Assembly: GCA_902593795.1 (NCBI GenBank)
Contig: CACJJR010000003.1
Coordinates: 23,626 to 87,625, forward strand
Origin: an uncultured Candidatus Actinomarina sp.
GTDB lineage: Bacteria; Actinomycetota; Acidimicrobiia; Actinomarinales; Actinomarinaceae
Direction: 5' to 3'
DNA: 64,000 nucleotides
Positions 12,904 through 22,837 of this stretch are shown one piece after another. A model generated the notes under the pieces. It ran no database searches. It had not been told where the DNA came from and worked only from the letters and a program-made list of their open reading frames with translations. The number at the start of each line of letters is the position of its first letter. Positions within the stretch are counted from its first letter, which is position 1. The position numbers were made by a program, and so were the translations under genes.

Positions 12904-13272
12904 ATGATTTCTTATTTTCAAGATTATGTGACCATAGGAGCCGTCCTAGGATTTGGCCTATTTCTTGTTGTGCTATTACTTGGAGTAGCTTCAGTTCTGA
13001 GACCTAACAAGCCTTATGCAGAAAAGCTTCAAACTTACGAATGTGGCGTAGACCCAGTAGGGACTGGATGGAGTCAAACATATGTAAGGTATTACATTTT
13101 TGGTTTGCTTTTTGTTATTTTTGATGTTGAAGCAGTCTTTATTTTTCCATGGGCAATTAATTTGGAGAAATTAGGTTATTTTGGATTAATCGAAATGTTT
13201 TTTTTCATATTCATTTTGCTAATTGGTCTTATATACGCGATAAGAAAGGATGTTCTGAAATGGGAGTCGTAG
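12904..13272 (+). CDS. nuoA: NADH-quinone oxidoreductase (NDH-1) subunit A
   Basis: 122 aa, 3 TM, YECG motif; first gene of the nuo cluster. Confidence 0.92.
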
Positions 13273-13757
13273 ATAAATTTGGTCTTCCAAAACCAATATC
13301 ATCAGTATTTAACTGGGCTAGATCATATTCTCTGTGGTACTTTCAATTCGGATTAGCATGCTGTGCTATTGAAGTTATGGCTGTAAGTGGACCGAGGCAT
13401 GATTTTATGAGATTAGGAGTAATTCCACTTCCTGCATCTCCACGACAGGCTGATTTTATGATTGTAGCTGGAACAGTAACTGACAAAATGGCTCCTTCAG
13501 TTAAAAGACTTTACGATCAAATGCCAGAACCTAAATATGTGATTTCTATGGGGTCATGTTCAAATAGTGGAGGTCCATATTGGGATTCCTATTCAGTAAC
13601 AAAAGGTGTAGATCAATTAATTCCTGTAGACGTATATGTTCCTGGTTGTCCTCCAAGACCTGAAGCACTACAGGAAGGGATAATACTTCTCCAAAAGAAA
13701 ATTCGTGGAGAAGACATGAAAGAAAAATGGTTAGAGGTTCAAACAGAGCCAATTTAA
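13260..13757 (+). CDS. nuoB: NDH-1 subunit B (N2 cluster subunit)
   Basis: [19 protein letters not shown] and VPGCPPRPE are the N2 [4Fe-4S] ligand motifs. Confidence 0.95.
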
Positions 13758-13758
13758 T

Positions 13759-14304
13759 ATGGAAGAATTTTTTAACAAAATAAAAGAAACCTTTACGGAT
13801 GCAACATTAGAGTTTGAAACAGTAACTATTAAAGTTGACTCAACTGAGTGGATTGAGACACACCAAAATCTTAGAGATCAATTTAATTTGAAATTTTTCT
13901 CCTGGCTATCTGCAATAGATTGGGACAATGAAGTATCTGTCGGAGAAGCACCTAAGGAGAGCGTTTCACCTAGTTTCGAAATAATTACATGCCTCTCAGA
14001 TTTAGCTAATACAAATTTAATTATTGTATCAACAAACATTGTTAAATCAGACCCAAAGATTAAATCTCTTGTGGAAATATACGCTGGAGCAAACTGGCAT
14101 GAGAGAGAAGCCTTCGAAATGTTTGGAATAAATTTTGAAAATCATCCAAACCTTGAAAAATTATATCTTCCTGACGGATACGAAGGAAATCCTATGCTTA
14201 AATCTTTTGAATTAATTAGCAGAGAAGTTAAGCCTTGGCCTGGTGAGGTTGATGTAGAGGGAATGCCAGAAGAATCAGAAAGTGATAAATCAGAAGATGG
14301 TTAA
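13759..14304 (+). CDS. nuoC: NDH-1 subunit C
   Basis: ANWHEREAFEMFGINFENHPNL is a NuoC/30-kDa subunit signature. Confidence 0.93.
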   Translation: MEEFFNKIKETFTDATLEFETVTIKVDSTEWIETHQNLRDQFNLKFFSWLSAIDWDNEVSVGEAPKESVSPSFEIITCLSDLANTNLIIVSTNIVKSDPKIKSLVEIYAGANWHEREAFEMFGINFENHPNLEKLYLPDGYEGNPMLKSFELISREVKPWPGEVDVEGMPEESESDKSEDG

Positions 14305-19779: not shown

Positions 19780-19787
19780 GAGGAAAA

Positions 19788-21356
19788 GTGGAATTATTAA
19801 CAAACGGTATAGGACTGACAGCAGTGGTCTTCCTGCCAATAATAAGTGCTTTAGTTTTAACTGCTATACCTAAAAGCCAAGAGCTTTTGATAAAAGGGTT
19901 TGCTTTAGTCTCTTCAATTGTTACTTTTGTTTTAAGTGTTTTACTTCTTCCTCAGTTTGATTTTTCTAATGCAGACAAGTTACAACTTGGTAATAAAATA
20001 ACTTGGATCAAAAGCATAAATGCCAACTACGAAATTGGAATTGATGGTATTTCCCTTCCACTATTAATTTTGTCAACGTTCATTACTGTTCTTGCGATTA
20101 TTTATTCAATCGAACATTTACCTGAGCCAAAAAGTCCCAAGGGCTTTCTTGCATTAATTCTAGTTCTAGAAACAGGAATGAATGGAACTTTTGTTGCTTT
20201 AGATTTAATTTTGTTCTTCGTATTTTTTGAAATAGTTCTTCTCCCGATGTACTTTATGATTGGTATTTGGGGAGATAAAACTGTTAGGTCAGTGGCTGGA
20301 TTTAAAAATCAAATTGAAACAAGGCTTTATGCAAGTATAAAGTTCTTTGTTTTCACTCTTTTTGGATCTGCTTTTATGTTATTAGGATTTCTTGGTTTAT
20401 ATTACAGAGGAAATAAAACATTCAGTATTCCTGAACTAATTGAATTAGGCACGAGTGGAGCATTTACTGGAACATTTGCAACGTTAGTTTTTGCTGTCTT
20501 ATTTTTAGGTTTCGCAGTTAAAGTTCCTATGTGGCCTCTTCACACTTGGCTTCCTGATGCGCATACTGCGGCACCAACAGTTGGCTCTGTTTTATTAGCA
20601 GCAATTCTCTTGAAACTAGGATCTTATGGTTTTATAAGGATTGCAATACCAATTCTTCCAGAGCAGGCAAAAGCTTGGGCTCCGGCAATTGCCATACTCT
20701 CAGCTATCGGTATTATTTATGGATCGCTTGCCTGCCTTGCTCAAACTGACCTTAAACGGTTAATAGCATTTTCTTCAGTTGGCCATATGGGTTTTGTAAT
20801 GTTAGGGATTGCCTCCCTAACCCCCATAGGAATAAATGCGGCAATCATTGGTATGGTCGCACATGGTGTGATTACTGGTTTGTTATTTTTCTTATCTGGT
20901 TCAATGGCACACACATATCACACACGAGATATGGGCAGACTAGGTGGAAATATGAAGTTACTACCTAAAACAGGTGCATTGTTAGGTTTTACTGCAATGG
21001 CTTCCTTAGGCCTACCAGGGTTAGCTGGATTTTGGGGTGAATTTATGGCTTTACTTGGAGCCTTTAATCCTTTAGATGGGCTGAATGTAACTATTTTTCG
21101 TAGTTCAATGGTAGCTGGTGCAATTGGAACTGTTTTAACTGCTGGATACTTACTGTGGATGTTACAAAGAGTTAATCTCGGCGAGCCTTCAGAGGAATGG
21201 AATGAAATGGAACTTCATGATGCAGACGGTTATGAACTAGCTGCATGGATTCCTTTAGTAATATTGACAATTCTTATTGGAGTATTTCCAAAACTAATTT
21301 TTGGAGCTACCAATGATGCTGTTGTAAGCCTTCTTACTAAAGCATTTGGAGGTTAA
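19788..21356 (+). CDS. nuoM: NDH-1 subunit M
   Basis: GTG start after AGGAGG. VKVPMWPLHTWLPDAHTAAPTVGSVLLA is a NuoM/ND4 signature. Confidence 0.95.
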   Translation: MELLTNGIGLTAVVFLPIISALVLTAIPKSQELLIKGFALVSSIVTFVLSVLLLPQFDFSNADKLQLGNKITWIKSINANYEIGIDGISLPLLILSTFITVLAIIYSIEHLPEPKSPKGFLALILVLETGMNGTFVALDLILFFVFFEIVLLPMYFMIGIWGDKTVRSVAGFKNQIETRLYASIKFFVFTLFGSAFMLLGFLGLYYRGNKTFSIPELIELGTSGAFTGTFATLVFAVLFLGFAVKVPMWPLHTWLPDAHTAAPTVGSVLLAAILLKLGSYGFIRIAIPILPEQAKAWAPAIAILSAIGIIYGSLACLAQTDLKRLIAFSSVGHMGFVMLGIASLTPIGINAAIIGMVAHGVITGLLFFLSGSMAHTYHTRDMGRLGGNMKLLPKTGALLGFTAMASLGLPGLAGFWGEFMALLGAFNPLDGLNVTIFRSSMVAGAIGTVLTAGYLLWMLQRVNLGEPSEEWNEMELHDADGYELAAWIPLVILTILIGVFPKLIFGATNDAVVSLLTKAFGG

Positions 21357-21358
21357 AA

Positions 21359-22837
21359 ATTACTATAAACTACTTTGCAATATCAACTGAATTAATTGTT
21401 ATATTTACTATCGTTGGAACTTTAATATTAGATTTAATTCTCCCTAGAAAATCAAAATATTATGTAGCAGCCTTTGCTCTTTTTGGTACTTTAGCTTCTT
21501 TAGCCCCTTTGGTAATTCAATGGGCAAGCTACACAAGCCCTTTATATGCATTTGAAAATAGCTATGTTGTTGATAAATTTTCAATAATTCTTAAAGGTTT
21601 ATTCATACTTATAACTTACTTAACTTTTCTATTATCTATAAATTTTATTGAAAGCGACAAATATTATCAGGGAGAGTATTACTACCTACTTTTAAGTTCA
21701 TTGTTAGGTGCTTTAGTTGTAAGTTCTTCAAGAGATCTACTTACAATATTTATAGGAATCGAGTTGGCCTCAACACCTATGTTTTTATTGTCTGGTTGGA
21801 AAAAGGGTGATAGAAAATCTAATGAAGGTGCAATTAAATTTTTCCTCTTAGGAGTTCTTTCAGCTTCGCTCATATTATATGGCTTTTCGCTACTTTACGG
21901 CCTTACTGGTCAATTAGTATTTTCTGAGATTTCAACATACTTACTATCCAACGCATTAGGAGATTCACCAGTGTTATTATTAAGCTCAATTTTAGTTATC
22001 TCAGGAATAGGTTTTAAAATCTCTGTTGTTCCATTTCATTCATGGGCACCAGATACTTATGAGGGAGCTCCATTACCGATAACAGCTTATTTGTCGGTTA
22101 GCTCAAAGGCCACAGGATTTGTTGCTTTAATCGTCTTATTAACAAAAGTTTTTGCAACATCTGGTCAAAGTTGGGGAGTAATTTTAGCAATTATCTCAGG
22201 TGCGACCATGACTTTAGGCAACCTAGTAGCCCTCCAGCAATCCAACCCGGTTAGGCTACTTGCTTATTCTTCAATATCGCAAGCAGGTTTTATTATTGCA
22301 CCCCTTGCGGTGGCAGGAATAACTGGAAATTACCAAGATGGTATATTTGCAAGTGTCACTTACTTAATCATTTATGCATTCATGAATCTAGGAGCATTCT
22401 TGTCTATACATCTATTTAGCAATTTTGCTGGTTCAGATAATTTTTATGATTGGGGAGGAGTTGCAAAACACTCTCCGCTAGCTGGAGTATTGACAACAGT
22501 TTTCTTCTTTTCATTAGCTGGAATCCCACCTCTTGGAGGTTGGTTTGCAAAGTTTGTAGTTTTTAGAAGTCTTTTAAGCACTGGAGAAATAGTAGGCATT
22601 TCTCTTGCAATCATTGGAGCAATAAACGCTGTTATTGCTCTTGTTTACTATGCAAGAATATCAAAGGTCATATGGATGGACGAATTAAAAAATCCTGAGC
22701 AAGAGCAGACCTTTGAATTCCAGAATCCTCTTAAAGTAGTCGGCGCCTTTACTGTTCTTATAACATTTATTGCAGGAGTATTTCCAGGTATATTCAGCTA
22801 TCTTGGAGAAGTTTCCTCTATATTTTTTGGTAATTAA
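21359..22837 (+). CDS. nuoN: NDH-1 subunit N, apparently initiated at a non-canonical ATT codon
   Basis: The frame is open from the nuoM stop. The conserved first TM helix (INYFAISTELIVIFTIVGTLILDLILPRKSK) lies upstream of the first canonical start (TTG 21509). There is no ATG/GTG/TTG/CTG between 21356 and 21509. GGAGG (21348-21352) sits 6 nt before ATT 21359. Confidence 0.8.
   Translation: MTINYFAISTELIVIFTIVGTLILDLILPRKSKYYVAAFALFGTLASLAPLVIQWASYTSPLYAFENSYVVDKFSIILKGLFILITYLTFLLSINFIESDKYYQGEYYYLLLSSLLGALVVSSSRDLLTIFIGIELASTPMFLLSGWKKGDRKSNEGAIKFFLLGVLSASLILYGFSLLYGLTGQLVFSEISTYLLSNALGDSPVLLLSSILVISGIGFKISVVPFHSWAPDTYEGAPLPITAYLSVSSKATGFVALIVLLTKVFATSGQSWGVILAIISGATMTLGNLVALQQSNPVRLLAYSSISQAGFIIAPLAVAGITGNYQDGIFASVTYLIIYAFMNLGAFLSIHLFSNFAGSDNFYDWGGVAKHSPLAGVLTTVFFFSLAGIPPLGGWFAKFVVFRSLLSTGEIVGISLAIIGAINAVIALVYYARISKVIWMDELKNPEQEQTFEFQNPLKVVGAFTVLITFIAGVFPGIFSYLGEVSSIFFGN

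Follow-up and report, generated by a model that had tools for sequence, protein, structure and literature searches.

This locus raises the question of how a respiratory complex I can work when its operon encodes no NADH-oxidising module, and what such an enzyme does beside a complete one. The stretch in question, here called the window, comprises 64,000 nucleotides (nt) of an uncultured Candidatus Actinomarina sp. (assembly GCA_902593795.1, contig CACJJR010000003.1, positions 23,626 to 87,625 of the forward strand). The element under study is an eleven-gene nuo operon within it, here termed nuo2, which lies downstream of a canonical 14-gene operon, nuo1. The explanation that fits best as a whole, with a probability of about 0.6, is that nuo2 encodes an intact complex I paralogue made of the quinone (Q) and proton-pumping (P) modules only, which would accept electrons from a soluble donor other than NADH, reduce quinone and pump protons in parallel with the nuo1 enzyme.

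The layout of nuo2 has already been published for this lineage and is of a known kind, an eleven-subunit enzyme (NUO11) as second complex I in Ca. Actinomarinales. Lopez-Perez et al. (2020, mSystems; PMC7771536) found the heliorhodopsin gene always between two copies of the nuo operon, one of them an 11-gene paralogue without nuoEFG. A later preprint (bioRxiv 10.1101/2021.02.01.429150, 2021) placed the Actinomarina enzyme in the 'ancestral' type of Moparthi and Hagerhall, with a full 14-subunit variant close by. The window holds the same locus as described in these two publications, including the NDUFAF7, htpX, pspE and adenosine kinase genes downstream, and there is no structural difference. 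Relative to both papers, the new elements are a Rex box on nuo1 only, a Tyr-to-Trp change in NuoD2, an Arg/Thr difference between NuoD2 and NuoD1 and the putative ATT start of nuoN2.

An intact operon with no room for nuoEFG

The nuo2 operon occupies positions 12904-22837 of the + strand and consists of 11 open reading frames (ORFs) in the order nuoA-B-C-D-H-I-J-K-L-M-N, separated by gaps of -13 to +8 nt. Each of the 11 matched its expected subunit family and no other in Pfam and NCBIfam (E-values from 1e-12 to 1e-183), so the eleven-subunit operon proposed in an earlier sequence-only reading of this DNA holds. The genes are as follows (window coordinates, strand, gene, family match; lengths in amino acids, aa).

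12904..13272, +, nuoA2; PF00507, E 1e-35
13260..13757, +, nuoB2; PF01058, and TIGR01957 at 223.9 bits against a cutoff of 142.7
13759..14304, +, nuoC2; PF00329, E 1.4e-30
14297..15493, +, nuoD2, 398 aa; PF00346, E 2e-84
15490..16461, +, nuoH2, start overlapping the nuoD2 stop; PF00146, E 1.4e-96
16461..16946, +, nuoI2; TIGR01971, E 1.9e-25
16950..17468, +, nuoJ2; PF00499, E 4.8e-32
17465..17770, +, nuoK2; PF00420, E 6e-28
17764..19779, +, nuoL2, 671 aa, with a long C-terminal extension; NF005141 at 610.5 bits against a cutoff of 556
19788..21356, +, nuoM2; TIGR01972 at 539.6 bits against a cutoff of 263.8
21359..22837, +, nuoN2, 492 aa, probable ATT start; PF00361, E 2e-62 over the 492-aa reading

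The stop codon of nuoD2 and the start codon of nuoH2 share the ATGA at 15490-15493, and therefore there is no room for nuoEFG between them, as the sequence-only reading had argued. The same 4-nt overlap is present in five related Actinomarina loci (L083-L087) and in a high-GC (guanine plus cytosine) relative (L172). Profile searches with Pfam and NCBIfam retrieved no NuoE (PF01257), NuoF or NuoG among the ORFs of the operon.

Two start codons differ from what a simple ORF search returns. The nuoD2 ORF opens at GTG 14282; the most likely start is ATG 14297, which gives 398 aa, the length of nearly all of 120 close homologues. The nuoN2 frame is open from 21359, but the first ATG, GTG or TTG occurs only at 21509, and gene callers differ on the start (475 or 494 aa). 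Because the frame is open from 21359 and a conserved GGAGG-N6-ATT (21348-21361, also found in 5 related loci) places an ATT 2 bases after the nuoM2 stop, nuoN2 most likely starts at the rare codon ATT 21359 and encodes 492 aa. There are no internal stops in nuoN2, either in the window or in L083.

The translations carry the residues expected of a working enzyme. NuoB2 has all four Cys ligands of iron–sulphur (Fe-S) cluster N2, including the CC doublet, and NuoI2 has two CxxCxxCxxxCP motifs (CTSCMLCARQCP and CMYCGICVEVCP), corresponding to two 4Fe-4S sites. Both membrane glutamates of NuoK2 are kept (SIELIL and AAAEVG), as are the glutamate motifs in transmembrane helix (TM) 5 of NuoL2, NuoM2 and NuoN2 (GWELVG, FFEIVLLP and GIELAS, respectively) and their TM7/TM12 lysine motifs (GKSAQFPLH, VKVPMWPLH and FKISVVPFH). 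The quinone-channel motifs of NuoH2 and NuoA2 are also kept. We assume for these NuoB, I, K, L, M and N motifs the functions established in the complex I family. As read from the translations, nuo2 retains the predicted ligands of three Fe-S clusters and the charged membrane residues for proton translocation. The operon is under strong purifying selection. Its ratio of nonsynonymous to synonymous substitution rates (dN/dS) is 0.04-0.09 against a relative at 71-87% amino-acid identity, a comparison in which synonymous sites are saturated, and there are no internal stops.

A complete 14-gene operon upstream

The window opens with the end of another nuo operon.

2..307, +, 3' end of nuoN1, with which nuo1 closes; weak PF00361 match, 98% identity to the C-terminal part of a 490-aa NuoN from single-cell genome AG-390-E09 (L003), stop TAA at 305-307

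The NuoN-like tail that the sequence-only reading had noticed is therefore the end of nuoN1, and its suggestion of a second related complex in the genome is confirmed by the relatives. In L003, the 490-aa NuoN is preceded by nuoF (3' part)-G-H-I-J-K-L-M, and in the metagenomic locus L094, whose NuoG is 90% identical, nuoA, B, C and D are followed by nuoE (PF01257), F and G. Each of the nine Actinomarina loci that extend far enough upstream carries nuoF and nuoG. Pieced together from these relatives (A-G in L094, F-N in L003, with only the nuoN1 tail inside the window), nuo1 is a complete 14-gene nuoA-N operon with NuoE, F and G that ends at position 307. The distance from there to the start of nuo2 is 12.6 kb, and, judging from close relatives, nuoE, F and G lie about 13-20 kb upstream of nuo2 on the same strand.

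Subunits of nuo1 and nuo2 are 28-52% identical. The solved structure that best matches NuoD1 is Mycobacterium smegmatis NuoD (463 bits), whereas NuoD2 is closest to Thermus Nqo4 (336 bits) and cyanobacterial NdhH (324 bits), with M. smegmatis NuoD at 258 bits. The low identity and the differing structural matches rule out that nuo2 is a recent duplicate of nuo1 minus nuoEFG; by sequence comparison, the two operons are old paralogues.

A short ORF follows nuoN1 directly.

307..441, +, 44-aa small hydrophobic protein; shares one base with the nuoN1 stop (TAATG), with homologues of 42-44 aa after nuoN1 in two close relatives (L001 and L002)

This protein may serve nuo1 as a small accessory subunit.

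Predicted Rex control of nuo1 only

Rex is an NADH-sensing repressor. In L094, nuoA1 is preceded at a distance of 14 nt by a perfect Rex box, TTGTGAAAATTTTCACAA (5427-5444), and this box occupies the same place in 34 loci in total. In L094 it adjoins a divergent Rex-like gene (3362-4006, - strand; PF06971 and PF02629). In the window, a consensus search allowing up to 3 mismatches found no Rex box near nuoA2, and none of the nuo2 loci scanned had an exact box. The NADH-sensing regulator thus appears, from the distribution of these sites, to control nuo1 only.

This bears on a point raised in the sequence-only reading, that nuoEFG genes elsewhere in the genome, co-regulated with and co-purifying with nuo2, would make nuo2 part of a split canonical complex I. 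Genes for NuoEFG do exist 13-20 kb upstream, but they belong to a self-sufficient operon with its own nuoH-N, and since nuo1 has a Rex operator and nuo2 lacks one, co-regulation is unsupported.

The region upstream of nuoA2 is itself conserved.

12824..12903, no strand assigned, intergenic region 5' of nuoA2; 87% mean column identity across four Actinomarina loci

It includes an inverted repeat, AAGTTT (12854-12859) and AAACTT (12871-12876) with a spacer of 11 nt, which may be the operator of some regulator. An operator of the IdeR or Rex type was considered for this region and rejected; no Rex box was found, and the conserved inverted repeat was the only candidate there. A promoter and terminator consensus scan of 10500-27000 gave counts no higher than in shuffled sequence and was uninformative on operon boundaries.

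The quinone site of NuoD2

Using the residue numbering of Thermus Nqo4, a high-confidence alignment places a Trp in NuoD2 at the position of the quinone-binding Tyr87 (NRIDWVAG, against PRMDYLHS in Thermus and SRWDYAAG in the cyanobacterial protein). His38 is kept and Asp139 is replaced by Glu, so NuoD2 departs from the standard His38/Tyr87/Asp139 set at two of three positions. Trp87 is found in 120 of 120 Actinomarina NuoD2 homologues and in 117 of 119 from an Ilumatobacteraceae-type group, whereas NuoD1 (TRMDYLSP) and NdhH keep the Tyr. Of 150 NuoD representatives, obtained by clustering at 50% identity, 101 carry Tyr and 29 carry Trp. The Trp-type sequences group as a coherent subfamily, in which positions 62, 81, 83, 169 and 172 are changed as well. 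Residue 66 was considered as a Tyr compensating for the lost Tyr87 and was rejected, as it is not consistent across Trp-type sequences.

Trp also occurs in two archaeal fused NuoCD proteins, from Methanofastidiosia and Methanonatronarchaeales, where it appears to have arisen independently. Another Trp-type NuoD group, with the motif VLANRHDW (P0153 and P0287; L170, 10001-11576), consists of orphan nuoD genes outside nuo operons in high-GC genomes.

A literature search by mutation name for Tyr-to-Trp mutants returned unrelated papers only. Tocilescu and colleagues are said to have found in 2010 that Yarrowia mutants at Tyr144 were inactive with decylubiquinone but still reduced the short-chain quinones Q1 and Q2 with coupled pumping. 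If so, the Trp enzyme could still reduce quinone, with altered binding. The change in the NuoD2 pocket reads as a sign of altered quinone binding or protonation, as far as the alignment suggests. A bolder possibility is that nuo2 of Actinomarina and the Ilumatobacteraceae-type group is a complex I variant with changed quinone chemistry, that is, another acceptor or another mode of binding or protonation, together with a non-NADH donor. The Trp in place of Tyr, the altered pocket neighbours, the linked methyltransferase whose target Arg is present only in NuoD2 (see below) and the lack of Rex control would all fit such a variant, of which we found no earlier description; we nevertheless consider it unlikely.

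A methyltransferase linked to nuo2

The gene that follows nuoN2 encodes a candidate maturation factor.

22841..23857, +, NDUFAF7/MidA-type S-adenosylmethionine-dependent methyltransferase, 3 nt after nuoN2; PF02636 at 86.8 bits against a cutoff of 23.3

The protein also matches a solved NDUFAF7 homologue (PDB 5ztz, E 9e-17), and a PF02636 gene occupies the same position after nuoN2 in L083-L087 and L172. Rhein and colleagues are said to have reported in 2013 that NDUFAF7 dimethylates Arg85, in an HRG motif, of mitochondrial NDUFS2. The Arg of the HRG motif in NuoD2, which we take to be the equivalent target, is present in 120 of 120 sequences (GYMHRGYEK), while NuoD1 has a Thr at this position (GYLHTGMEK; L094, 6731-8107). 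The methyltransferase therefore fits a dedicated role in the maturation of nuo2, and on this sequence pairing it probably methylates the conserved NuoD2 Arg.

Relatives and origin of nuo2

The nearest Tyr-type relative of NuoD2 (50% identity) is encoded in an 11-gene nuoABCDHIJKLMN operon of a genome with 58% GC (L168). High-GC homologues named Ilumatobacteraceae or Actinomycetota carry the NuoD2 signature. In one of these high-GC loci, L172, where NuoD2 groups with Ilumatobacteraceae-type proteins, the order nuoABCDHIJKLMN is followed by the PF02636 gene; in another of the Ilumatobacteraceae-type group, L171, the NuoD2 homologue belongs to the second of two nuo clusters that follow each other directly. 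The nuo2 operon and the NDUFAF7-type methyltransferase gene are inherited as a unit in Actinomarina and in L172. From this distribution, nuo2 is best described as an old module that has been passed on vertically within this part of Actinomycetota.

Comparison with known complexes

Eleven-subunit complex I is a well-described type that works without NuoEFG and whose donors are undefined or multiple (PMC3144371, PMC4758237, PMC11238625). The NUO11 enzymes of Desulfitobacterium hafniense, Bacillus cereus and Chlorobium share with nuo2 the same gene set and order, the absence of the NADH-oxidising (N) module, conserved Q and P modules and an undefined donor (same sources). Three differences from them were found. 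The Actinomarina genome also has a 14-subunit (NUO14) operon, which places it outside the strict definition of PMC4758237 (no N-module in the genome); NuoD2 has Trp for Tyr87; and an NDUFAF7-type methyltransferase is linked to nuo2. Compared with NUO14 operons, nuo2 lacks the nuoE-F-G genes between nuoD and nuoH that are present in nuo1.

In NCBIfam, NuoA2, B2, D2, H2, J2 and K2 each match an equivalog model of bacterial Nuo best. These models were probably built on Firmicutes proteins. The NDH-1 complex of cyanobacteria and chloroplasts also has an 11-subunit core without NuoEFG; its NdhH is the second-best solved structure for NuoD2, and it is the best-understood precedent for ferredoxin as donor. 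In contrast to NDH-1, the genes of nuo2 form one operon, and the Ndh models score below their cutoffs (NdhH 353 against 583 bits, NdhI 56 against 302 and the NdhA-type subunit 3 94 against 145). No ferredoxin-docking subunit of the NdhS, NdhV or NdhO type was noticed among the annotated neighbours of nuo2, although no search was aimed at these proteins. Streptomyces, another member of Actinomycetota, has a canonical nuoA-N and a second cluster (nuoA2-N2) without nuoEFG (cited in PMC7771536), a likeness in gene content; these gene names are also used in papers on Streptomyces.

Proposed working of nuo2 and the alternatives

In the preferred explanation, nuo2 would consist of a quinone module (NuoB, C, D and I) and a membrane proton-pumping module (NuoA, H, J, K, L, M and N), and it would assemble without NuoEFG like other NUO11 enzymes. 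Electrons would reach the exposed NuoI clusters on a soluble low-potential carrier, not from NADH, and would pass via cluster N2 to membrane quinone as protons are pumped; the enzyme would run in parallel with the Rex-controlled NADH enzyme of nuo1. Organisms that have NUO11 and lack NuoEFG must use donors other than the NADH module, and we infer a non-NADH donor for nuo2 too.

As the sequence-only reading had stated, the electron-input partner is not encoded in the operon. Among the annotated ORFs, no gene for a redox partner was found within about 13 kb upstream or about 4 kb downstream. Ferredoxin is the established donor of the cyanobacterial enzyme. By analogy, ferredoxin or flavodoxin would be the leading candidate for nuo2, at somewhat less than even odds, and some other donor (neither of these two, nor F420H2 or a borrowed NuoEFG) is somewhat less probable.

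Three points weigh against this explanation. NuoEFG is encoded only about 13-20 kb away, so sharing is possible from sequence. The Trp at Tyr87 removes a residue thought to hydrogen-bond with or protonate quinone, and ordinary quinone reduction is not guaranteed. The missing Rex box at nuoA2 is negative evidence from a consensus search.

Lopez-Perez et al. (2020) suggested that nuo2 acts as an F420H2 dehydrogenase of the Fpo/Fqo kind, which would be fed by an FpoF-like flavoprotein encoded elsewhere. Archaeal Fpo of Methanosarcina mazei is indeed an 11-subunit Nuo-like core without NuoEFG, nuo2 is up to 35% identical to it, and Actinomarinales possess both the pathway for F420 biosynthesis and several oxidoreductases that depend on F420 (PMC7771536). 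However, with the NCBIfam models specific to Fpo, nuo2 gains no advantage in score over the NADH-type nuo1, and every value falls well short of its curated cutoff (145-1050 bits).

FpoD model: nuo2 338 bits, nuo1 344, cutoff 600
FpoH model: nuo2 237 bits, nuo1 310, cutoff 475
FpoI model: nuo2 50 bits, nuo1 64, cutoff 180
FpoK model: nuo2 91 bits, nuo1 96, cutoff 145
FpoL model: nuo2 373 bits, nuo1 349, cutoff 1050
FpoC model: nuo2 71 bits, nuo1 65, cutoff 220

Since nuo1 and nuo2 score similarly, the 35% identity reflects a generic likeness of complex I cores and does not discriminate. Bacterial Nuo models score nuo2 higher (e.g. 447 bits with PRK12322 for NuoD). No FpoF, FrhB or FpoO gene was found in the operon or in the flanking ORFs scanned (window positions of about 500-26000). 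The quinone-site signatures are also opposite: FpoD has Tyr87 and lacks His38 and Asp139 (PMC4758237), whereas NuoD2 has Trp87, His38 and Glu139. At the level of these comparisons, the published F420 suggestion is without specific sequence support, and we regard it as improbable.

To a similar degree, we doubt that nuo2 serves as an alternative chassis (membrane and quinone parts) for NuoEFG borrowed from nuo1, such that both enzymes oxidise NADH and differ in quinone or pumping properties. The nuoE, F and G genes lie on the same strand at the distance given above, and the annotated neighbourhood of nuo2 offers no other electron supplier. Yet the subunits to which NuoG would dock (B, C, D and I) are just 31-52% identical between the two operons, and NuoD2 lacks a segment of about 20 residues of the 14-subunit NuoD proteins, the alignment breaking at Nqo4 positions 315-336. 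The closest relatives of nuo2 are stand-alone 11-gene operons (L168 and L172), and the Rex box is on nuo1 and not on nuo2. In Desulfitobacterium, stand-alone NuoE/F homologues did not co-vary with the 11-subunit enzyme (PMC11238625).

Less probable again is that the Tyr-to-Trp change makes nuo2 something other than an ordinary quinone reductase, with a non-quinone acceptor or a partner protein, or operating mainly in reverse. The near-invariance of the Trp (120 of 120 in Actinomarina and 117 of 119 in the Ilumatobacteraceae-type group), its presence in the NuoCD proteins of Methanofastidiosia and Methanonatronarchaeales and the several pocket neighbours that change along with it are in favour. 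On the other hand, His38, an acidic residue at 139, the N2 ligands and the NuoH and NuoA quinone-channel motifs are all kept, and the co-varying pocket positions may reflect mere shared ancestry. The reported behaviour of the Yarrowia Tyr144 mutants suggests that the Tyr is not strictly essential.

Finally, we reject the idea that nuo2 is a pseudogene or a duplicated operon in decay after the loss of nuoEFG, for which only the missing genes speak, because all 11 ORFs are intact at a dN/dS of 0.04-0.09, the operon is kept across Actinomarina lineages and an Ilumatobacteraceae-type high-GC relative, the nearest relatives are themselves 11-gene operons and identity to nuo1 is merely 28-52%.

Locus and gene neighbourhood

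The host genome is about 1.1 Mb in size, as estimated from a near-complete contig of 1.08 Mb, and streamlined, its genes lying a median of 2 bp apart (PMC7771536). The window has a GC content of about 34%, in a Candidatus Actinomarina host. When the nuoN1 tail was scanned against species-representative genomes, the best matches were 11 Candidatus Actinomarina/OCS155 genomes, and positions 1-9385 are 95-97.5% identical in DNA sequence to L003. At about position 3502, some 0.9 kb that is present in the close relatives L001 and L003 is absent here, including a gene for a zinc-type alcohol dehydrogenase. This difference is a small indel between near-identical strains.

Between nuo1 and nuo2 lie genes for an ATP-binding cassette (ABC) transporter, thymidine kinase, a DtxR-type iron repressor, ferrochelatase, a ferric-iron ABC transporter, heliorhodopsin and a divergent phosphodiesterase-family protein. 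Downstream of nuoN2, the order is the NDUFAF7-like methyltransferase, an HtpX-like peptidase, a rhodanese and a PfkB kinase. The gene order around nuo2 is kept in 5 other Actinomarina contigs (L083-L087). Two of the neighbouring features are given here.

10738..11637, +, heliorhodopsin gene between the nuo operons; PF18761, E 2.4e-87, same place in L083-L087, synteny published
23882..25052, +, HtpX-like M48 peptidase (23882-24718, PF01435) and rhodanese (24702-25052, PF00581), conserved in L083-L087

The iron genes (DtxR-type repressor, ferrochelatase and ferric-iron ABC transporter), followed by heliorhodopsin, span 4687-11637. An 11-subunit enzyme needs far fewer Fe-S clusters than a 14-subunit one, which may raise the idea of an iron-sparing use. 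Further downstream, 28000-64000 looks like the conserved rpoB/rpoC (ORFs of 1130 and 1304 aa) and ribosomal-protein region, judging from ORF size and order alone.

Implications for Actinomarina and for eleven-subunit complex I

Ca. Actinomarinales are abundant and extremely streamlined bacteria of the surface ocean. The retention of a second respiratory operon of 10 kb in such a genome therefore implies a real physiological role, which is probably the entry of low-potential electrons bypassing NADH. The NuoD2 quinone site, with its Tyr-to-Trp change, is the one aspect that might repay more work. The identity of the donor to 11-subunit complex I is a general question across many bacteria, and for Actinomarina the Rex control of nuo1 only, the lack of specific likeness to Fpo, the Tyr-to-Trp site and the pairing of a methyltransferase with its predicted target Arg provide handles for later study.

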